This document shows positions 691-12,744 of a DNA stretch of 64,000 bases, in pieces. The stretch covers positions 42,724-106,723 of the forward strand of contig CAKUWP010000004.1 in assembly GCA_934699525.1 (NCBI GenBank). The letters are read 5' to 3'. Position 1 is the stretch's first letter; each line of letters opens with the position of its first letter. Below the pieces are notes generated by a model. The model was not told the origin of the DNA and ran no database searches. It saw nothing but the letters and a program-made list of their open reading frames with translations. The position numbers and the translations under genes are program-made. Source of the DNA: an uncultured Bacilli bacterium (GTDB lineage Bacteria > Bacillota_I > Bacilli_A > RFN20 > CAG-826).

Positions 691-1047
691 GGGATATGTC
701 AGTCCGACTGACAGTTATTTAACGTTATCGAAACGGGGATGTCAACGGTTCTTCCCATAATTGCTATTTTTTTACCGATATCCCGAATAAAGTTCATTCC
801 TAGATTATCAACTCCAAAGTTGACAACTTTATTGTTGATAATCTTTTGTTTAGGATTATTCAATGCAATCCAAGCATTATTATACGGTGTATATTCGAAA
901 ATGGGCGGGATTTAGTGAGGATATCCTCGCTCTGAATGATCCTTCCGTTCATTTGGTGAGCCTCGAAGATATGGTTCGCGCTTCCCTTTGATTCACCCAA
1001 ACAAAAAAAGAAGGGGGACGTGGATGCGTTTTCCCTTCTTTTTCAGT

Positions 1048-1878
1048 TCATTTAGTTTCGGTGTTAGGGATGGGGTTCTTGGATTCGAGCTTCTTTTGCT
1101 TCTGCTTGGCGATGAGGTAATGGACATAATAAATGGAGCCAAGATAAAGGAGGATCACGGGGGCGACGAGGTACATATGCCAATAATTGAACGGGATGAT
1201 GCTGTGGAGAAAAATCACCAAAGGATTAATCTCGTTTTCCCCACAAATGGAGAACATGTAATTGACTTGAATGAGGTCGCCTTTATAGTCACGGATATCG
1301 TTTTGGACAAAATAACGGTTGAGCCCCACGTTGCAGAAATAGACGAGGGTATAAAGAACCAAAGTGATGCCCATCGTGGTGGCGATGTATTTGGCTTTTA
1401 ATTCGATATAGCCGAAGCGGATCAAAAGAATCGGAAGGCCAAATTCGATGACGTGGGGGAAATAATACCAAAAGAATGTCCAAGAAAAGATATCAAAATT
1501 AGCGGCCCCGTTATTGACGATTAGGGCGATTAAAGCACCCAAGGACCATAGCAATAAGCAGTTCCCCAGGACCTTGTTCTTGCTTAAAACAACAAAGGGC
1601 AAAATCATCGCGTTAAAAGAACAGAGTTCAAGGGGAAGGTATTCCAAAGGACTATGCCACATCACCAAATTGAAGATGATGGCCCCGTATCCTAGTAGCG
1701 AGAATCCAAAATAGACCCATTTCCGGTACGGATCCTTAAGGAGTCTTCCTAGGCCATATAAGCCCAAGATGAGAAGCAAGCCAATGGCTAAGGTTATAAA
1801 GTGTGTAAGTGTAAAGGTTCCCCAAAGCATAGAAAACCTTAAGACCATAGGCCATCTAGCGTCAAAAGGCAAGGGCAA
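1048..1878 (-). CDS. polytopic integral membrane protein of unknown function (YwaF/TIGR02206-like)
   Basis: 276-aa ORF, 6-8 hydrophobic segments. Family assignment is a guess from memory. Confidence 0.5.
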   Translation of the reverse strand: MPLPFDARWPMVLRFSMLWGTFTLTHFITLAIGLLLILGLYGLGRLLKDPYRKWVYFGFSLLGYGAIIFNLVMWHSPLEYLPLELCSFNAMILPFVVLSKNKVLGNCLLLWSLGALIALIVNNGAANFDIFSWTFFWYYFPHVIEFGLPILLIRFGYIELKAKYIATTMGITLVLYTLVYFCNVGLNRYFVQNDIRDYKGDLIQVNYMFSICGENEINPLVIFLHSIIPFNYWHMYLVAPVILLYLGSIYYVHYLIAKQKQKKLESKNPIPNTETK

Positions 1879-1950
1879 TCGAGTCGTTTATCGATACAGC
1901 TCTCGCTTCTTTTGCCATTGGAGCGAGGCGCAGTTATTGAAGAACCACTC

Positions 1951-2538
1951 CTACAAATAAATCTTAAATGGATTTTCGTCCAACAGTTCCATGCGCCACA
2001 AACGGTAGATTCTATCGCTTGCAATATTGGAATCCCACTCCGTCAGGAAAACCTGGCCGTTGTTAAGGTAAAACGCAAAGATAATGGAGCCGGAGCCCAC
2101 CTGGATTTGGGGTTTGCCGAGAATCGAGACGACCTCCCCAATCGTCATGTCCAATTTCACTTTTTCAGTGTCTTCCGCCGATGGGAGAATCATTCGAAAG
2201 GGGTTGAACCACGTGCCTTTGTCGGAGGGATCGAACACCTTGGAGCGGCCTATCGGGTTTTGCTTCAATAGGCGCGAGGCAAAGACGTTCCACTCCTCCT
2301 CCCCGAAATTTAGCGGAGGCGCGTCGCTCACGCCGAACATAGGCGGAAAAATCGGCTTGGTGGAAGCAGGCGTCACGACAACCGGCTGAGTTTTGTCCAC
2401 CGTCTTCGTTTGCGTCAAGGATTCGTTAAGTGGCTGTCCAAGCTGCGTTTGTGCATCGATTGGATTTTGGGTTTTGCCGACCGCGCTGAAAAAATGGATG
2501 TCGCGACAATGAATGCCTTTAGTCCTAATTGTTTCACT
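1951..2538 (-). pseudogene. frameshifted secreted-protein paralog, chimeric (leader and signal peptide copied from the 788-aa gene, body from the 211-aa paralog)
   Basis: The ORF body (1951..2418, TTG start) is about 75% identical to 2667..3254. The upstream 2473..2590 duplicates 5582..5700 but carries an A6 tract at 2489..2494 where the intact gene has A7 at 5596..5602. Restoring one A fuses a GTG-initiated signal peptide (VKQLGLKAFIVATSIFF...) in frame to the body. Confidence 0.55.
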
Positions 2539-2590
2539 TAATATCCCCTTTGTAGGCTCATTTTTTCATAAAATGTAAGCTCCTTCAATC
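2473..2590. repeat. duplicated promoter/leader plus signal-peptide segment (about 90% identical to 5582..5700)
   Basis: Direct alignment by eye of the two segments. Confidence 0.8.
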
Positions 2591-2666
2591 ACTATGATTA
2601 ATTTAAAAGTCCCGCGAACCAATAAAAATTAGTGTGAGTACGAAACCGACGGAATCGTTGGGGAAA

Positions 2667-3254
2667 TTATGCCTTTGGATGCCTCCTAAATGGATTTTGG
2701 TCAAACAAATCCATATCATACAAGCGATAAATTCTATCGCCTATGAAATGCGAATCCCACCACGTCAGGAAAACCTGGCCGTCGTTGAGGTAAAACGCAT
2801 AGATAATGGCACCGGAGCCCGCCTCAATTTGAGGCTTGCCAAGTATTGAGACGACCTCCCCAATCGTCATGTCCAATTTCACTTTTTCAGTGTCTTCCAC
2901 CGACGGAAGCATCATCCGAAAAGGATCGAACCACGTGCTTTCATCTGATGGATCGAACACCTTGGAGCGGCTTATCGGGTTTTGCTTCAATAGGCGCGAG
3001 GCAAAGACGTTCCACTCCTCCTCCCCGAAATTCAGCGGAGGGACGTCGCTTACGCCGAATAGGGGCGGGAAAATCGGTTTGGTGAAGGTGGGCGTCACGA
3101 CAACCGGCACATGACTGTTATCTATATTAATTTCTGCAAAATCGTCGTTTTCACTAATTGTCGGTTTATCTCCCGTTCCCAAACCTGTCGATGCACTCAA
3201 AAAGATAAACGGAAGAGTTAAAATCAAAGGTAGAAGTTTTTTGATAAATCGCAT
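2667..3254 (-). CDS. secreted protein of unknown function, member of a tandem paralog family
   Basis: The ORF 2667..3302 has a probable true start at MRFIKKLLPLILTLPFIFLSASTG (signal peptide). It is paralogous to 1951..2418. Confidence 0.6.
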   Translation of the reverse strand: MRFIKKLLPLILTLPFIFLSASTGLGTGDKPTISENDDFAEINIDNSHVPVVVTPTFTKPIFPPLFGVSDVPPLNFGEEEWNVFASRLLKQNPISRSKVFDPSDESTWFDPFRMMLPSVEDTEKVKLDMTIGEVVSILGKPQIEAGSGAIIYAFYLNDGQVFLTWWDSHFIGDRIYRLYDMDLFDQNPFRRHPKA

Positions 3255-3277
3255 ACGCCCTCCCTTCAAATCTATTT

Positions 3278-5644
3278 TTAATCGTAGAAAAGATGGTTCC
3301 ACGGAGTCAATGCATAGAAGCCGAGAAAATTAACATACGAGCCTCTATCGCAAAGTTCTGGATCAACAATCAAATTTCCCGATTCATCCGTTCTTCGCAC
3401 TTTGTCCCGGCCCGGCTTGTGAGACCAGTGGCCATTAGAATCTTGACGATACCAGTGATAATCGCGATCGCTAACAGCCAATGCAACTTTGTATGTCCCG
3501 GAGGGTGTTGTGGCATATTTGCCGACTTCTTGGAACATCAAACTCGTTCCAAACTCTTCATTATATTTAGAAAAATCTCGCATTACCGCTTTTTCCAAAA
3601 CGGTTTTAGTGCAAGAAACATATCTTTCTCCACTGTAATCACCAGGCTGCTGCATTTTCCAAAACTCGTTCGTCCCGGGCCACATTTGGTTGTTTAATAT
3701 ATAGGCGTAGCAATTGTTGTTTTCGATATTTCCCAATCGCCACACGCTTGGGTTATATTTCAATTCGTAACCAGAAAGCGGCAAAGGGTCAATTTCATAA
3801 TACGCCAAATCCCCAATGCATATTCTCCCTAAATTGCTATCGGCATTGACAGCAGTATCGTAAATTTCGGAATAAAACCGAACTTTATACGTAGGTCTAT
3901 CCAACCATACCTGATACAGGTTGGGACGGTTTCTATCTCGCGGAAGGCCAGTGGAATCCGCCAAAAGATCCAATTGGGTTACCCATTCCCCTTTATAAAA
4001 GAATTGAATTTCCGCCTTTCCGTTGGTTTTATCCAGCTTTTCTTTTGAAAATTCGCGCCAATGGGAAAGCTGCACGTCGATTCTATTAACGGTTTTTTCA
4101 AAACTATATTCGATGAACGCATGATCAAACCCCTTTCGTCTCGGCGAAAGCACAATATATTCATTGTGGATATATCCCGCGCGATATCTTCTTGTTTTGA
4201 AAGAACCCCCATTTCTCGTTTGGTGTTCCGTAAAAGTTGTGGCCGTCGCTTCATCGCTGGGGTAAGCGTCCTCATAGCCGTATTCAGCGGGCTTAATATA
4301 CGGCGTTCTTTCGTAATCGACGGGCTTATTGAATTCCCTTCTGCACCAATAACCGTCAAATCCTAGCGTATCCGACGAAGCCTGAATTTCTAAAAACACG
4401 TTATACGTTTTTCCTTTGGTTTCGAATCTAGCTGAATCCCACAATTCTTGCGTCAGCGTATATTCCGTGGAATTAATGCCATAGGCAAAGTTTTTGCGGA
4501 CTCTATCACAATCCAAAATAGAAAGTTTGGTACGAATAAAATAGTTTGAAAACCACTTTTCATTATATAAAGACATCCAACGGAACGTAGGCAAAGCATC
4601 ATTGAAATTCCCTTGCACCAGTTCAATTTCTCTGGGGTACACATAACTGCAAGCGCATAAATTATCACCAAGAGAAGAATGATAATGAAACGCATGGGAA
4701 TGAGAAAAACTAGGCTTAATATCGAGATAAGTTATATCCAGAAGATTATTGTAAGGGAGTTTGGATAACGCAACATGGGTCAACGCAACATTCCTTGTTT
4801 CATCTCGCCAACCGGTATGAACATAGATTTCGTCAGCGTTTTCATCGTAATCATAAGCAATCATGCTATGGCAGGTATTCGTTGTGGGTTCCTTAGCCCG
4901 TAGAATGACGGGCACCCCATCCTTAATTTGTCTAACGACGGCCTCGCGCATTAATTGCTCGTCTTCATTAAAATAGGATTGAACCGTCGCTTTTTGATCT
5001 GAAATATGTGCGTAAGAATTTAAATAAGTCGAGAGCACGTTAGACAATTCCGTTCGATTTAGACCGAGCGAATCACTACTTCCGTCAAATTTGTTGTCTC
5101 CAAAAAGCGATTTGGCAATTTCGATTAATTTAAACTGGAAATACGTGTCGGAATGCAGCGAAACAACTCCGTAATAGTCCTGAATGGAAAGTCCATCAAC
5201 CAACTGCCCGGATTCAAACAACACCCCCGGAGATTCGATGGCGGAGGGGATCAAATCGAAATCCGCCAGATATTGACGGTTCGATTGAAATTCTGAACCG
5301 GCATCATATCTATTATCGATAAAAGCATCATCCCAGTAAGAATCATAAAAAGATAAGAGCATCCCCATAGAAACATAGGAACATGTGCCATGAGAATTAT
5401 TCCCAAAATTAGAATTCAGGTTATCGAAATAATAGCTAGAGTAATGATTGGTTAAGTAGATGGGGGAAGGCGACTCGGTGGACAGCGTATCAAACAAATT
5501 GTCCACATCCGTTTCACCCCTATGGGCAAAGGATAAGCTTTCTATTTTATTCGTTTTTGCAACGATGTGATTCGGCACGTTGCCAACCGCGCCGAAAAAA
5601 ATGGATGTCGCGACAATGAACGCCTTTAGCCCTAATTGCTTCAT
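3278..5644 (-). CDS. large secreted protein with putative C-terminal papain-like cysteine peptidase-like domain
   Basis: 788 aa with a signal peptide MKQLGLKAFIVATSIFFGAVG. The C-terminus has a Cys...His...Asp arrangement (NNCYAY...DYHWYRQD...D) reminiscent of NlpC/P60 or CHAP-like folds. The domain call is inference. Confidence 0.5.
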   Translation of the reverse strand: MKQLGLKAFIVATSIFFGAVGNVPNHIVAKTNKIESLSFAHRGETDVDNLFDTLSTESPSPIYLTNHYSSYYFDNLNSNFGNNSHGTCSYVSMGMLLSFYDSYWDDAFIDNRYDAGSEFQSNRQYLADFDLIPSAIESPGVLFESGQLVDGLSIQDYYGVVSLHSDTYFQFKLIEIAKSLFGDNKFDGSSDSLGLNRTELSNVLSTYLNSYAHISDQKATVQSYFNEDEQLMREAVVRQIKDGVPVILRAKEPTTNTCHSMIAYDYDENADEIYVHTGWRDETRNVALTHVALSKLPYNNLLDITYLDIKPSFSHSHAFHYHSSLGDNLCACSYVYPREIELVQGNFNDALPTFRWMSLYNEKWFSNYFIRTKLSILDCDRVRKNFAYGINSTEYTLTQELWDSARFETKGKTYNVFLEIQASSDTLGFDGYWCRREFNKPVDYERTPYIKPAEYGYEDAYPSDEATATTFTEHQTRNGGSFKTRRYRAGYIHNEYIVLSPRRKGFDHAFIEYSFEKTVNRIDVQLSHWREFSKEKLDKTNGKAEIQFFYKGEWVTQLDLLADSTGLPRDRNRPNLYQVWLDRPTYKVRFYSEIYDTAVNADSNLGRICIGDLAYYEIDPLPLSGYELKYNPSVWRLGNIENNNCYAYILNNQMWPGTNEFWKMQQPGDYSGERYVSCTKTVLEKAVMRDFSKYNEEFGTSLMFQEVGKYATTPSGTYKVALAVSDRDYHWYRQDSNGHWSHKPGRDKVRRTDESGNLIVDPELCDRGSYVNFLGFYALTPWNHLFYD

Positions 5645-5748
5645 TTAATGTCCCCTTTTATAGGCTCATTTTTACATAAAATGTAAGCGCTTTCAACTTA
5701 AGAGTGAGCCACGAATGGGCATACGAATGATACTTGTGCAGTGCGTTT

Positions 5749-7050
5749 TTAATCTTTCAACGCCGTTACAGGAATAATATACACGCCCTCAGCATTTTTA
5801 TAAGCGGCGTTACCTACCCCATAGATAACGCATTTGATAATGGGCTCTTTGCCCCCGTTAGCAACAATTTCATTGCAGACTTTCACGAGATTTTTCGACC
5901 CTTCTTCTGCTTTTGCTAGACCCAGTTTGATTTCAATGGCGCACCAATTGCCATCAACCAGTTCAATCACGGCATCGATCTCATTGTTTTTATAGTCCTG
6001 GTAATGAAACAACTTGCCTCCCATGGCTTGTGCATAAATGGATAAATCCCGTTCCACCAATGCTTCGAACATAAACCCAAACGTGTTCAAATCCCCCATC
6101 ATTTTCTTTGGGGTAAGTCCAAGCATAGCACAAGCCATTGCCGGATCCGAAAAATGCCTCTTTTCCATTTGCTTCACGCGAAGTGAGGAACGCAAGTTCG
6201 TCGAAAAGGGTTCTTGGCTGTTTAACAGGAACATCCGTTCAAAAGCATTTAGATATTTTGTAAGCGTGTTTTTGCTGACGGAAGAGGCATCGTTTTCCTC
6301 GATGTCTTTTAAAATGCTTTGATTTGAGACAGTCGTAGATTCATTTCTAGCCAAAGATTTTAGAATTAATTTTGCTTTATGTTCGTCATACTCCTGCCCA
6401 TCTCCCAACCGTTTTAAGTCATTTTTAATAACGTTTTCCATATAGCCAAGAGAAAGTTCGTTACATTCCTCCGAGCCTACGGACAAATTGCCGGGCCATC
6501 CACCCCGAGCAATAAGATAGGCAAGACACTCCAAACTCGTTTGTTCATAAATTTTTGGGGTAAATTTATTTTCACATAAATCTTTTAGGGAGATATCACC
6601 GCTAGAATCCCCCGATTCATAGAGCGACATCGTATTCATCCGAATGCTTTTAATCCTGCCAACCCCACTATGCAAAACACCTTTAAGCACAGGCGTCGAT
6701 GAGCCCGTTAGGATGATCTGCCCTTTTTTACCGCTAGAATCTACGAATGCCCGTGTCGCATCCCAAAGAGAAGGAACTTCTTGCCATTCGTCAATCAGGC
6801 GAGGCGCATCGCCCTTCAAAACGATATAGGGTTCAATTTCGGCTAAAGTGCGATTGGAGAAATTCCCACTAGGATCCCCGACAAGGAATTCGCTGTTTGC
6901 GTGATAGGAAGATGTCCATGTTTTTCCACACCATTTGGGACCTTCGATGCAAACGGCTCCAAAAATTTTTAGGTCCCTATCAATAATGGAATCCACGACT
7001 CTTGCTTTGTAGTGGAGCTTATTCACGATTTTCCCCATAGAATCCCCCAT
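5749..7050 (-). CDS. AAA+ superfamily ATPase, DUF4143/COG1373 family
   Basis: 433 aa with a Walker A-like GPKWCGKTWT. It is a clear paralog of 32765..34039 and more distantly of 31387..32652. Confidence 0.8.
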   Translation of the reverse strand: MGDSMGKIVNKLHYKARVVDSIIDRDLKIFGAVCIEGPKWCGKTWTSSYHANSEFLVGDPSGNFSNRTLAEIEPYIVLKGDAPRLIDEWQEVPSLWDATRAFVDSSGKKGQIILTGSSTPVLKGVLHSGVGRIKSIRMNTMSLYESGDSSGDISLKDLCENKFTPKIYEQTSLECLAYLIARGGWPGNLSVGSEECNELSLGYMENVIKNDLKRLGDGQEYDEHKAKLILKSLARNESTTVSNQSILKDIEENDASSVSKNTLTKYLNAFERMFLLNSQEPFSTNLRSSLRVKQMEKRHFSDPAMACAMLGLTPKKMMGDLNTFGFMFEALVERDLSIYAQAMGGKLFHYQDYKNNEIDAVIELVDGNWCAIEIKLGLAKAEEGSKNLVKVCNEIVANGGKEPIIKCVIYGVGNAAYKNAEGVYIIPVTALKD

Positions 7051-7083
7051 TTTCGGTTAATAAATTCAAGGTTAATGTAGAGC

Positions 7084-7175
7084 ATTGACCCATATTTGTC
7101 AATTCTATTGACCCATATTTTTAGTTTTCATTGACCCGTTTTTTCGGTTTTGATTGACCAAGATTTTAGATTGAG
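7084..7175. repeat. 4 tandem 23-bp direct repeats (ATTGACCCATATTT...) in the divergent promoter region
   Basis: The ATTGACC box recurs at 7084, 7107, 7130 and 7153, an exact 23-bp period. Confidence 0.85.
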
Positions 7176-7330
7176 GGGATAGAAATTATGCCTTTTAGAT
7201 GTAGGAGGAGTTGAATTTGTACACTGTGCATATAAACTCGCCTAAATTCGGTATCTTATTATTGATTTCTTTGATAGAATCCCACTAGTTTTCTCAAATC
7301 GTTGGCTGAAAACAAAAAATAAGGAGATTT

Positions 7331-8335
7331 ATGGACAACGACAAAAAACAAGCAAGAGCCGCCAGGCTCAAGAAAATGTTCGCGCCCGGTCCTGAAGCGA
7401 TGGATTATCGCGTCACGCCGCTGCTCGACACGATCTTAAAATGGTTGATGTTCACGGTGACCATTCTAGGGGTATCCGTCATAACGTCGAAATTCCAAGC
7501 GTACGGCAACATTCCGTTCAACATCCTCTGCGGCATCGTCGTCTTAATCGCGATGAAGCCCGTCTTCTTCGAAGCACTGAAACTATCCACCTTACTCGTT
7601 GGCAGAATCATTGTATTGTTCGCATGCTTCGGCTTACTCCCCGGACCCGTGTTCGTCGTCATCGTCTTGGGTCTTTACATCATCAACATCCTAGAAGCGA
7701 CCATGACGGACTTTTTCAAGAACAAGCAATATTTCAACGGCGTTTCCGGTTTATTTATTGCTATCGGCGCGAGTGCCTTCTTCCTCGGCTCCACCTGGGG
7801 AAACACTGCTACCGCCAATTCGCCCATCTATTACATCGACGGCTTCTCCAAGCTTGGTTCCCAAGTGAACTTCACTTCTTCTTACATCACCAACCAAGCC
7901 AATATCTTCAATAGCAACATCACGAGCACCACGACCGTTGGCCTTGCCATCACCGTTGCCATGATCATTGCCTACACCATCTGGAACTGGCTCTTCGTCA
8001 TCGGCGAATTCTCTTCTTCCGTTGGTTTGATGCACGTCGGGTTCTTGCTCGCCCCGATTATCGGCGTCTTTGTCGGACCCCTCGTTGGTATGGGACGCTT
8101 CGGCATGCTCCCCGACCCGGGACTTTGGTTACTCTTCCGCGCGAGCACCCTCACCTTCGGCGGAATCCTCCAAATCGGCTGCAAGAGATGGTTCGAAGAG
8201 AACTTCATGTTCGAACCCTTTGACCGTAAAGTTCAGCACATCAAAAACAGCAAACCCATTCAAATCACCTGCATGATTATCTGCTGTTCCTTGATGATCT
8301 TCGCCGTCGTCGCTGGCTTCATGCCCGCGATGTAA
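7331..8335 (+). CDS. integral membrane protein, unknown function
   Basis: 334 aa with multiple TM segments. The start lies 8 nt after an AAGGAG Shine-Dalgarno motif (7319..7324). Confidence 0.65.
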   Translation: MDNDKKQARAARLKKMFAPGPEAMDYRVTPLLDTILKWLMFTVTILGVSVITSKFQAYGNIPFNILCGIVVLIAMKPVFFEALKLSTLLVGRIIVLFACFGLLPGPVFVVIVLGLYIINILEATMTDFFKNKQYFNGVSGLFIAIGASAFFLGSTWGNTATANSPIYYIDGFSKLGSQVNFTSSYITNQANIFNSNITSTTTVGLAITVAMIIAYTIWNWLFVIGEFSSSVGLMHVGFLLAPIIGVFVGPLVGMGRFGMLPDPGLWLLFRASTLTFGGILQIGCKRWFEENFMFEPFDRKVQHIKNSKPIQITCMIICCSLMIFAVVAGFMPAM

Positions 8336-8392: not shown

Positions 8393-8461
8393 AAAATGCC
8401 AGTAATCATCGATATTATTGGTTGAGCATGGAACGTTAAAAACAAAGAACGCTCAGCTGCC

Positions 8462-8576
8462 GTTACAAACATTTGTGGTGTTTTGTTGCAATGATTTGCG
8501 GCATTTCGTTGCAAACATTTGCGGTGTTTTACTTCCAACTTTTGTGGTGGTTCATTTTACGTTTTCGTGGTACTGG
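8462..8576. repeat. 5 tandem 23-bp direct repeats (GTTGCAAACATTTGCGGTGTTTT), degenerating toward the 3' side
   Basis: Units at 8462, 8485, 8508, 8531 and 8554. They lie between two convergent genes. Confidence 0.8.
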
Positions 8577-8634: not shown

Positions 8635-9486
8635 TTACTTCAAAAGCCCTTTTGAAGCATTTAATTTCACGATGGGTTCGACCTTGGCTTCGTCTAAGAA
8701 GTCACGCATGATGACGTTAATGTCGGAAAAATAGTCTTGCTGAGGCAAATTCTCAATAAAGGTGTTCATATTCGCTTCGTGGCCCCTTTCGCGATGATAA
8801 GGGCCGAATACGAGCTTTGAATCCGTGAGCTGGCATTGCCAAACAAAGATGCCTTTATGCCCTTCTTCTTCCTTCTTGGCTTGGATTTTATCCATGTAAT
8901 AGCCCAAGGCTTCATTGATAAATTGTTTCGATTTCATCGCGTGATACGAAGAAATATAGCAGGAATCCAAGGCCTGGCCTTTTTGGGTGCAGGCATCGTT
9001 ATTCCTGCTGAAGATATGGGCCTCTTTAACAAACGGGGAATCATCTCCAAAGAAAACAATGCATTTTCCTCTTGTGTCTTTAAGACGAAGTTCATCGACG
9101 AAGGCCAATTCGCTTTGATCATCGTTTTGAACAACGAGACGGTCTTTTAGTTTCTTCGAGACCGTGTGATAGACGTATTCATCGCTTCCGTTTTTAAAGT
9201 GCTGAAAATCCAAAAGGAGAGTTTCGCTGGGGTTTTCTACAATAAACGAAGCGATATCATCCAATATGGGATCGAACCGAATTCCGTTGATGATTGAATG
9301 GTAAATCACATAGTCATTTTTGACGTGATTGACCCGCAAATCAAAATAACGGACTCCCAAATTCAGTTGTTCCTTCACGCTTAAATGTTGAGTCTTGCCT
9401 AGCCAGCTCATTCCATTGGTTCCGGCATCGTGGCTACCGGGCAAAACAATTTCATTTAAGCGGGCTTCATCATCGATGGTACCCAT
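8635..9486 (-). CDS. phosphatidylinositol-specific phospholipase C X-domain (PI-PLC-like) phosphodiesterase
   Basis: 283 aa with LPGSHDAGT, matching the PI-PLC X-domain signature. Confidence 0.7.
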   Translation of the reverse strand: MGTIDDEARLNEIVLPGSHDAGTNGMSWLGKTQHLSVKEQLNLGVRYFDLRVNHVKNDYVIYHSIINGIRFDPILDDIASFIVENPSETLLLDFQHFKNGSDEYVYHTVSKKLKDRLVVQNDDQSELAFVDELRLKDTRGKCIVFFGDDSPFVKEAHIFSRNNDACTQKGQALDSCYISSYHAMKSKQFINEALGYYMDKIQAKKEEEGHKGIFVWQCQLTDSKLVFGPYHRERGHEANMNTFIENLPQQDYFSDINVIMRDFLDEAKVEPIVKLNASKGLLK

Positions 9487-11847: not shown

Positions 11848-12744
11848 ATGAGTGAATTCATAAGCGTCAAAGAAGCGTCCATTCAATGGAATCTATCGGA
11901 AAGAACCGTCCGGAACTATTGCTCTCTTGGGAGAGTACATGGGGCGATTTTAGTTGGCAAAACATGGAAAATTCCCGCGGGAGCAAAGAAACCGATCCGA
12001 ACCAACGAAAAAGAAGGGAAAAACTATCTTTTGGAGAGGCTGCGCTTAGAAAAGAAAAATCAAATCAAAGGCGGCATCTACCATAAACTGATGATTGACC
12101 TCACCTTCAACTCCAATCACATGGAAGGCAATGAACTCACTCACGATGAGACGAGGTACATCTTTGAAACGAAAACGATAGGAATCGAAAAGAATACCAG
12201 CAAAAAAGTAGACGATATCGTAGAAACGATGAATCATTTTGCCGCCATCGATCGCGTCATTGATTTTGCTAACTATCCATTAAGCGAAACTTTTATCAAA
12301 GAATTACACAAAATACTTAAATCGAATACTAGCGATTCTAGGCTCCCTTATTTCGCCGTTGGCGATTATAAGAAGATGCCCAATGAAGTTGGCGGTTTGG
12401 AAACGACTCACCCAAGGCTTGTGGGGTCCGAAATGAAGAAACTTCTTAGCCAATATAACAAAAAGGAAAGCCATTCTTTGGAAGAAATCGTGGAATTTCA
12501 TGTCCAATTTGAAAGGATTCACCCCTTTCAAGACGGAAACGGAAGGGTGGGCCGCTTAATCGCATTCAAAGAATGCCTAAAGAACAACCTGGTTCCCTTT
12601 ATTATTTTCGACGATAAGAAGGTTTTCTATTATCGGGGCTTAAAGAATTGGGATCAAGAACACGGTTGGCTTATGGACACCTGTTTGGAGGGACAAGATA
12701 TCGTTAAGACGTATTTGGATTATTTCAATATTGCCTATCGATAA
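11848..12744 (+). CDS. Fic family protein (HTH plus Fic domain)
   Basis: 298 aa with the canonical Fic motif HPFQDGNGRVGR and an N-terminal HTH. Confidence 0.85.
   Translation: MSEFISVKEASIQWNLSERTVRNYCSLGRVHGAILVGKTWKIPAGAKKPIRTNEKEGKNYLLERLRLEKKNQIKGGIYHKLMIDLTFNSNHMEGNELTHDETRYIFETKTIGIEKNTSKKVDDIVETMNHFAAIDRVIDFANYPLSETFIKELHKILKSNTSDSRLPYFAVGDYKKMPNEVGGLETTHPRLVGSEMKKLLSQYNKKESHSLEEIVEFHVQFERIHPFQDGNGRVGRLIAFKECLKNNLVPFIIFDDKKVFYYRGLKNWDQEHGWLMDTCLEGQDIVKTYLDYFNIAYR

Follow-up and report, generated by a model that had tools for sequence, protein, structure and literature searches.

A frameshifted secreted-protein gene behind a repeated signal-peptide module in an uncultured gut bacterium: homopolymer switch or young pseudogene?

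Variable surface protein families of Mycoplasma share a conserved 5' region which holds the promoter and the signal peptide. In the vaa adhesin gene of Mycoplasma hominis, a run of 7-9 A's at the 5' end switches at 10^-3 to 10^-4; A8 is ON, and A7 or A9 is OFF (PMC524362, citing Zhang and Wise 1997). This is the shortest mycoplasma example found here (PMC524362). For phasome prediction, a cut-off of at least 10 has been used for poly-A/T tracts (PMC6321876).

The locus described here lies in a stretch of 64,000 nucleotides (the window) from an uncultured human-gut Mollicutes/Bacilli bacterium; related loci carry the labels 'uncultured Mollicutes bacterium UMGS153' and 'Bacilli bacterium HGM10921'. 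One of its genes, gene C, is split at a run of six A's, and the initial annotation saw in this run the classic configuration for slipped-strand phase variation. Gene C resembles vaa in that it codes for an exported protein and has, in its 5' part, a short run of A's, in that one base decides the frame of the body, and in the Mollicutes label of the host. It differs in that the tract is 6 nt long and is not conserved in orthologues, and in that no length variation is seen at either tract of the locus; moreover, its protein is neither a lipoprotein nor a known adhesin. As in the Mycoplasma families, a module of promoter, leader and signal peptide is common to unrelated bodies (a 788-aa peptidase and a 195-aa protein), and N-termini are modular, with four signal-peptide types on one body. 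However, there are only two module copies in 64 kb; they are direct repeats, so inversion cannot exchange them, and there is neither a lipobox cysteine nor a long promoter tract.

A third point of comparison is the ordinary frameshift pseudogene of a redundant tandem paralogue. Gene C shares with it a one-base deletion in a short mononucleotide run, a lesion which is the same in every covering assembly, an intact paralogue next door, independently disabled orthologues, and hybrid and deletion alleles in sister strains. It departs from the ordinary case in that the body has no secondary lesions and a plausible promoter, ribosome-binding site and start are kept; this suggests that the event is young.

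Layout of the locus and the repeated module

Every gene of the locus is on the minus strand, in the order AAA_14/DUF4143, A, B, C, TMEM164. The features are as follows.

5749..7050, minus strand: AAA_14/DUF4143 ATPase gene, upstream; the left flank of the locus, kept in all lineages.
5580..5696, minus strand: intact expression module of gene A; a promoter-like site and the leader come first, then the ribosome-binding site, the ATG start at 5644-5642 and the signal-peptide n- and h-regions.
5595..5601, minus strand: A7 run (T7 on the coding strand) in the gene A module; the intact counterpart of the A6 run.
3278..5644, minus strand: gene A, encoding a 788-aa secreted putative cysteine peptidase (open reading frame and subthreshold profile matches).
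2667..3254, minus strand: gene B, intact 195-aa secreted paralogue of gene C, with its own signal peptide MRFIKKLLPLILTLPFIFLSAS.
2474..2588, minus strand: diverged module copy ahead of gene C, with TTGAAG (2588-2583), AAAAAT (2565-2560), AAAGGGGA (2551-2544) and GTG (2537-2535).
1951..2537, minus strand: gene C, split, with the 5' open reading frame and the body in different frames.
2415..2537, minus strand: 5' open reading frame of gene C, 40 aa; signal-peptide core, then an out-of-frame tail and a stop.
2489..2494, no strand assigned: A6 run, read as T6 on the coding strand; here the frame breaks, the tract being one base under the in-frame length.
1951..2418, minus strand: gene C body in the shifted frame, 155 codons and no internal stops; linker and conserved body, with a putative BamE/BLIP-like C-terminal domain.
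1048..1878, minus strand: TMEM164-family membrane protein gene, downstream; the right flank of the locus, kept in all lineages.

Gene B starts 23 nt past the stop of gene A. Gene C starts at the GTG at 2537 and meets a stop at 2415, 40 codons later; gene callers give it as a 129-aa product which starts at an internal ATG. The bodies of B and C have 427 nt in common at 86% DNA identity, in keeping with the tandem paralogue of the initial annotation, and the N-termini of the proteins are of the secreted type, as had also been proposed. No ATG, GTG or TTG lies upstream of the TTG at 2418 in the body frame, and a start further upstream in this frame, with a different signal peptide, was rejected for that reason.

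The module was described earlier as a repeat of leader and signal peptide with about 90% identity over 118 bp. It is real: in a local alignment of 2474-2588 with 5580-5696, 104 of the 117 columns are identical (88.9%), with two single-base gaps, and the gene C copy measures 115 nt. One gap falls in the leader; the other is the A6/A7 difference. The A6 run had been placed exactly; the A7 run exists, but its coordinates had been set one base off (5596-5602). In the gene A module, the promoter-like site, whose -35 hexamer opens the repeat, consists of TTGAAA, a spacer of 17 nt and TG-n-AAAAAT, followed by the ribosome-binding site AAAGGGGA. The TTGAAG version ahead of gene C scores just under the threshold of the promoter scan, and the start codon there is GTG, where every other module has ATG. 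Even so, the gene C module still looks expressible from its sequence, its promoter-like site, ribosome-binding site and GTG start all being present.

The tract is located in codons 16-17 of gene C, within the signal peptide; on the coding strand, the gene-C-specific sequence 3' of it is CAGCGCGGTCGGCAAAACC. Addition of one A yields a 195-aa protein beginning MKQLGLKAFIVATSIFFSAVGKTQNPIDAQTQ (the start is also given as MKQLGLKAFIVATSIFFSAVGKTQNPIDAQTQLGQPLNESLTQTKTVDKTQPVVVTP), so the earlier statement that A6 versus A7 separates signal peptide from body holds. Intact 195-aa homologues with the same signal peptide and linker match the repaired protein from end to end (100% of its length, 86% identity), which indicates that the restored frame is the true ancestral frame. 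Relative to these homologues the frame of gene C is disrupted, its open reading frame ending at 40 aa.

Several other features lie close to the locus. Two arrays with a period of 23 nt could be operator-like or iteron-like sites: one (7083-7167; 3.7 copies, with ATTGACC in each) is located between the AAA_14 gene and a divergent gene for a 334-aa membrane protein, and the other (8461-8552; about 3-4 copies of CGTTGCAAACATTTGCGG) is just 3' of that membrane protein gene. Genes for a PI-PLC X-domain phospholipase-like protein and a Fic-domain protein (8635-9486 and 11848-12744) neighbour the secreted peptidase locus; functions of both kinds are frequently linked with host interaction. Between the TMEM164 and TetR genes, an ATPase_2/DUF234 gene of about 1.4-1.5 kb is found in L005 (9546-10943) and L018 (5625-7145) and is absent from the window (842-903).

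The same locus in related strains

The MKQLGLKAF signal peptide encoded by the module is an oddity among peptidases. Of 117 clusters of homologues of the 788-aa protein, only the window's own 99% cluster begins in this way; the other 116 have unrelated signal peptides. C-type genes carry the module at their 5' end in every lineage, and the intact 195-aa proteins P0001-P0003, P0037 and P0041-P0043 combine the MKQLGLKAF signal peptide with the same linker and body. Across the B/C family, four signal-peptide types occur on one conserved body. Since the module is present in all C-type genes and in a single cluster of 788-aa homologues, it appears to be native to the locus and to C-type genes, and the peptidase gene most likely captured it. 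The initial annotation had the 5' region of the 788-aa gene duplicated onto the paralogue body; that direction is probably the reverse of what took place.

The gene C module has diverged further than its relatives. In a comparison with eight other modules over 118 columns, it has 10 unique states versus 0-2 in the others and none in the gene A module; the unique changes include ATG to GTG, and the -35 element and leader are also altered. Its nearest relative is the gene A module of its own genome (11 substitutions and 2 gaps), while C-type modules elsewhere differ at 17-21 positions. Within-lineage duplication or gene conversion, followed by drift of the C copy, fits these distances; an unsampled donor lineage fits them equally well.

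Outside the lineage of the window, all C-type genes read CCATGTTTTTC (Met-Phe-Phe) at the position of the tract, so that a T5 is interrupted by a G. The homopolymer thus appears to be a lineage-specific accident of a G-to-T change and not a conserved device. These genes have been damaged in other ways. In an alignment with the intact C-type gene of L005, a 1-nt deletion at GCGA-GT is common to L009 (UMGS153), L012 and L014-16; L010 has a separate 1-nt deletion at GGCGT-AGCG, L013 has an inserted T, L014-16 have two more indels, and in L012 a TGG has become TAG. In all, L009-L016 have no fewer than four indels of independent origin and a nonsense codon; most of these lesions are irreversible and sit at sites outside repeats. 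Two 75-aa products, P0034 and P0035, are cut off in the same region and are recorded on five contigs each. Intact alleles coexist with the broken ones, in L005-L007 and in the P0001 cluster (12 members).

Between the same two flanking genes, four arrangements are found.

Arrangement 1: the 788-aa gene, gene B and frameshifted gene C (the window).
Arrangement 2: the 788-aa gene and a single in-frame B-C hybrid (L017 and L018, 98% identical to the window).
Arrangement 3: the 788-aa gene and one B-like gene (L008).
Arrangement 4: a C-type gene alone (the L005 and L009 groups; the L005 copy is intact).

Gene C is thus missing as a separate unit from L008, L017 and L018. The hybrid (L017 6001-6582; L018 4086-4667) joins the signal peptide and N-terminal part of gene B to the body of gene C; the crossover falls between ...NPIS and SDKG..., and the gene C module is absent. 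Judged by their structure, both single-gene forms would be the expected products of homologous deletion between the repeats of the window; the lineages are too diverged for the forms to be placed in order.

A history of the following kind may be proposed. The locus between the AAA_14 and TMEM164 genes would natively consist of a C-type gene behind the promoter, leader and MKQLGLKAF module. In the lineage of the window, a two-gene cassette (the 788-aa cysteine peptidase and its partner B) would have come to lie behind one copy of the module, and a second copy would have stayed ahead of gene C. The presence of gene B may then have made gene C redundant; its module would have drifted, with ATG becoming GTG and with changes in the -35 element and leader, and one T may have been lost from the T7 by replication slippage, which would have cut the signal peptide off from the body. 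Deletion of the G from an ancestral ATGTTTTTC is an equally parsimonious route to the same sequence.

Error, recoding, switch or pseudogene

Single-base homopolymer indels are a common class of sequencing error, and the true sequence could be supposed to be A7. The initial annotation had kept this alternative in reserve; it is refuted by three further metagenome assemblies from other samples and studies (L002, L003 and L004), which were found through an exact-sequence lookup of gene B. Although produced by different assemblers, they agree with the window base for base, with 100% identity over 341 nt round the tract and over 3.6-9 kb of flank, including the module and the T6. The broken 129-aa product (P0014) is recorded on 6 contigs, and a run of 6 is short for an error of short-read sequencing. 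An artefact is accordingly next to inconceivable. The four assemblies that cover the gene C tract are essentially one clone; they test for error and not for evolutionary stability. An apparent 120-nt in-frame deletion in the peptidase of L002, called at 748 aa (L002 5636-5671; window 3584-3739), is a scaffold gap of Ns and not an allele. If the A6 is real, the full-length protein might still be made from it if ribosomes slipped by -1, or RNA polymerase slipped, on the T6/A6 run. A P-site tRNA-Phe paired with TTT could slip to T TTT in the -1 frame and so give the same protein as A7. However, the zero frame reads ATT TTT TCA and lacks an X XXY YYZ heptamer, and the 89 nt downstream fold less stably than shuffled sequences (z = +1.81). 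Transcriptional slippage usually needs longer runs, of about 9 or more, and intact orthologues encode the protein in a single frame. Recoding is thus highly improbable.

Slipped-strand phase variation, with gene C now OFF and returning to ON at a useful frequency through the gain of one A, has more in its favour. The tract lies between signal peptide and body in the 5' coding region of a secreted-protein gene, a change of one unit toggles the frame, a single inserted base restores a full-length protein typical of the family, and the body is undamaged; related loci bear Mollicutes or Bacilli labels, and vaa of M. hominis is switched by tracts of A7, A8 and A9 (PMC524362). What speaks against it is that no ON allele has come to light. 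An exact look-up among about 15 billion proteins does not find the repaired 195-aa protein, nor is it in the 21 clusters of the homologue search, in which the best full-length match is 86% identical; at the level of consensus sequences, an A7 allele of gene C is found in no assembly and not in the protein collection, including the 6 contigs with the broken product. An exact-pattern scan of JGI metagenome contigs for either tract, with its length left free, gave no match at all, and it was only by a protein-based scan that the organism was found there. The paralogous T7 of gene A is the same in six assemblies (the window, L001, L002, L008, L017 and L018; 92-100% identical to the window, consensus level). 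The tracts, at 6 and 7 nt, fall below the poly-A/T cut-off of at least 10 (PMC6321876); the repeat is not kept in orthologues, where the T5 is interrupted by G, and these have been lost through indels outside repeats and a nonsense codon. Nor does the run stand out in the window (G+C 43%), which has about 130 A/T runs of 6 or more: 108 of 6, 21 of 7 and one of 8, with none reaching 9. A scan in which one base was added or removed at 176 listed homopolymer runs flagged no other split gene, only neighbouring, overlapping genes of operons; the scan is crude and missed gene C too, the body frame staying open across the tract. Phase variation is therefore unlikely, although consensus assemblies would hide minority A7 subpopulations. 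A related idea is that gene C is a silent reserve, which deletion between the direct-repeat modules or between the B and C bodies would revive by joining its body to an intact module or to the signal peptide of gene B. Both predicted products have counterparts: the L005-type loci run AAA_14, module plus C, TMEM164, and the in-frame B-C hybrid is found in strains 98% identical to the window (L017 and L018). Yet direct repeats yield irreversible deletions only, and repair of the frame needs a crossover in about 15 nt of homology 3' of the tract. The L005-type loci, at 93-95% identity, belong to a different lineage and are no recent derivative, and the same patterns are equally expected of ordinary turnover in a gene family. 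This makes a reserve function quite improbable. The same low expectation applies to its more general form, a portable expression-site module in which secreted bodies (the peptidase and its partner, or the BamE/BLIP-like protein) are swapped by recombination and the A6 copy is a silent reserve, revived by a one-base slip or a repeat deletion.

Gene C is probably a fixed pseudogene, inactivated not long ago, of a redundant paralogue. It belongs to a small family of secreted proteins with a putative BamE/BLIP-like C-terminal domain, in which genes recombine and copies are gained and lost. Its frame is disrupted, independent samples have the same lesion, and relatives have disabling lesions or have lost the gene. 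The initial annotation had held that a fixed A6 with no variation would point to a plain pseudogene, and the consensus-level evidence does point that way. The intact gene B next to it suggests that gene C is redundant, which is the simplest reason for its loss. The body has no second lesion and its dN/dS against intact relatives is 0.14-0.36, of the purifying type, so the inactivation is either very recent or not permanent.

The peptidase cassette and the meaning of the locus

Gene A is a putative secreted cysteine peptidase of the papain-like kind, to judge from two profile matches under their cut-offs: Pfam Peptidase_C39_2 (E 1.7e-4, 22.6 bits versus a cut-off of 24) and NCBIfam NF045837 'Mplas_Cys_pep' (E 4e-10, 40 bits versus a 45-bit cut-off). 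A sequence search of the PDB gave no relative of the 788-aa protein. Another lineage, L021, has a peptidase 62% identical to that of gene A, and 19 nt past its gene begins one of 224 aa whose product is a homologue of B and C (hhalign, 98.8% probability, E 5.8e-17). The peptidase and B-like gene thus appear to form a conserved cassette, with B as the native partner of the 788-aa gene. L021 has two peptidase cassettes in tandem (1948-8051), of 787 aa plus 137 aa and then 785 aa plus 224 aa; of the two partners only the 224-aa one is homologous to B and C. The cassettes adjoin genes that match ThsA_Macro and DUF4365 and, faintly, Anti-Pycsar, and the neighbourhood may be a variable or defence island.

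Genes B and C have no direct Pfam or NCBIfam match, save one to Pfam DUF7738 at E 0.19. A profile search with the B/C family gave 106 representatives, most of which match a C-terminal domain of about 70 aa. At least one match to BamE (PF04355), BLIP (PF07467) or DUF3862 (PF12978), the Pfam families compared, was found in seven of ten scanned representatives, some above and some below cut-off. The C-terminal domain of B and C may thus be called BamE/BLIP-like, an indirect assignment through profile relatives. A PDB sequence search with the B/C profile gave nothing, and an AlphaFold2 model of gene B, built from an 18-sequence alignment, had a mean pLDDT of 38, too poor for a test of the fold.

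Staphopains and staphostatins are a known case of a cysteine protease with an adjacent gene for a small inhibitor. As with that pair, a large papain-like secreted peptidase is here followed by a small gene, 19-23 nt on; the pairing is kept across 62%-diverged lineages, and relatives of the small protein match BamE, BLIP or DUF3862, BLIP being a protein inhibitor made of BamE/BLIP-like domains. Unlike the staphostatin type, gene B has its own signal peptide. That gene B is a partner or inhibitor of the peptidase is a conjecture.

The direct result is a negative one: a plausible homopolymer switch reads, on comparative evidence, as an ordinary young pseudogene. Runs of A or T of 6-7 nt in AT-rich genomes are poor grounds for calling phase variation. 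The comparison brings out an uncharacterised two-gene cassette, made up of a secreted cysteine peptidase of about 785 aa and a small secreted protein with BamE/BLIP-like relatives, which has been kept between distant lineages. If the portable module were real, an uncultured, Mollicutes-like gut lineage would have a system for varying its secreted proteins. In the locus itself, strains of this gut bacterium, for which metagenomes are the only source, have swapped signal peptides, formed hybrid genes and lost genes more than once.
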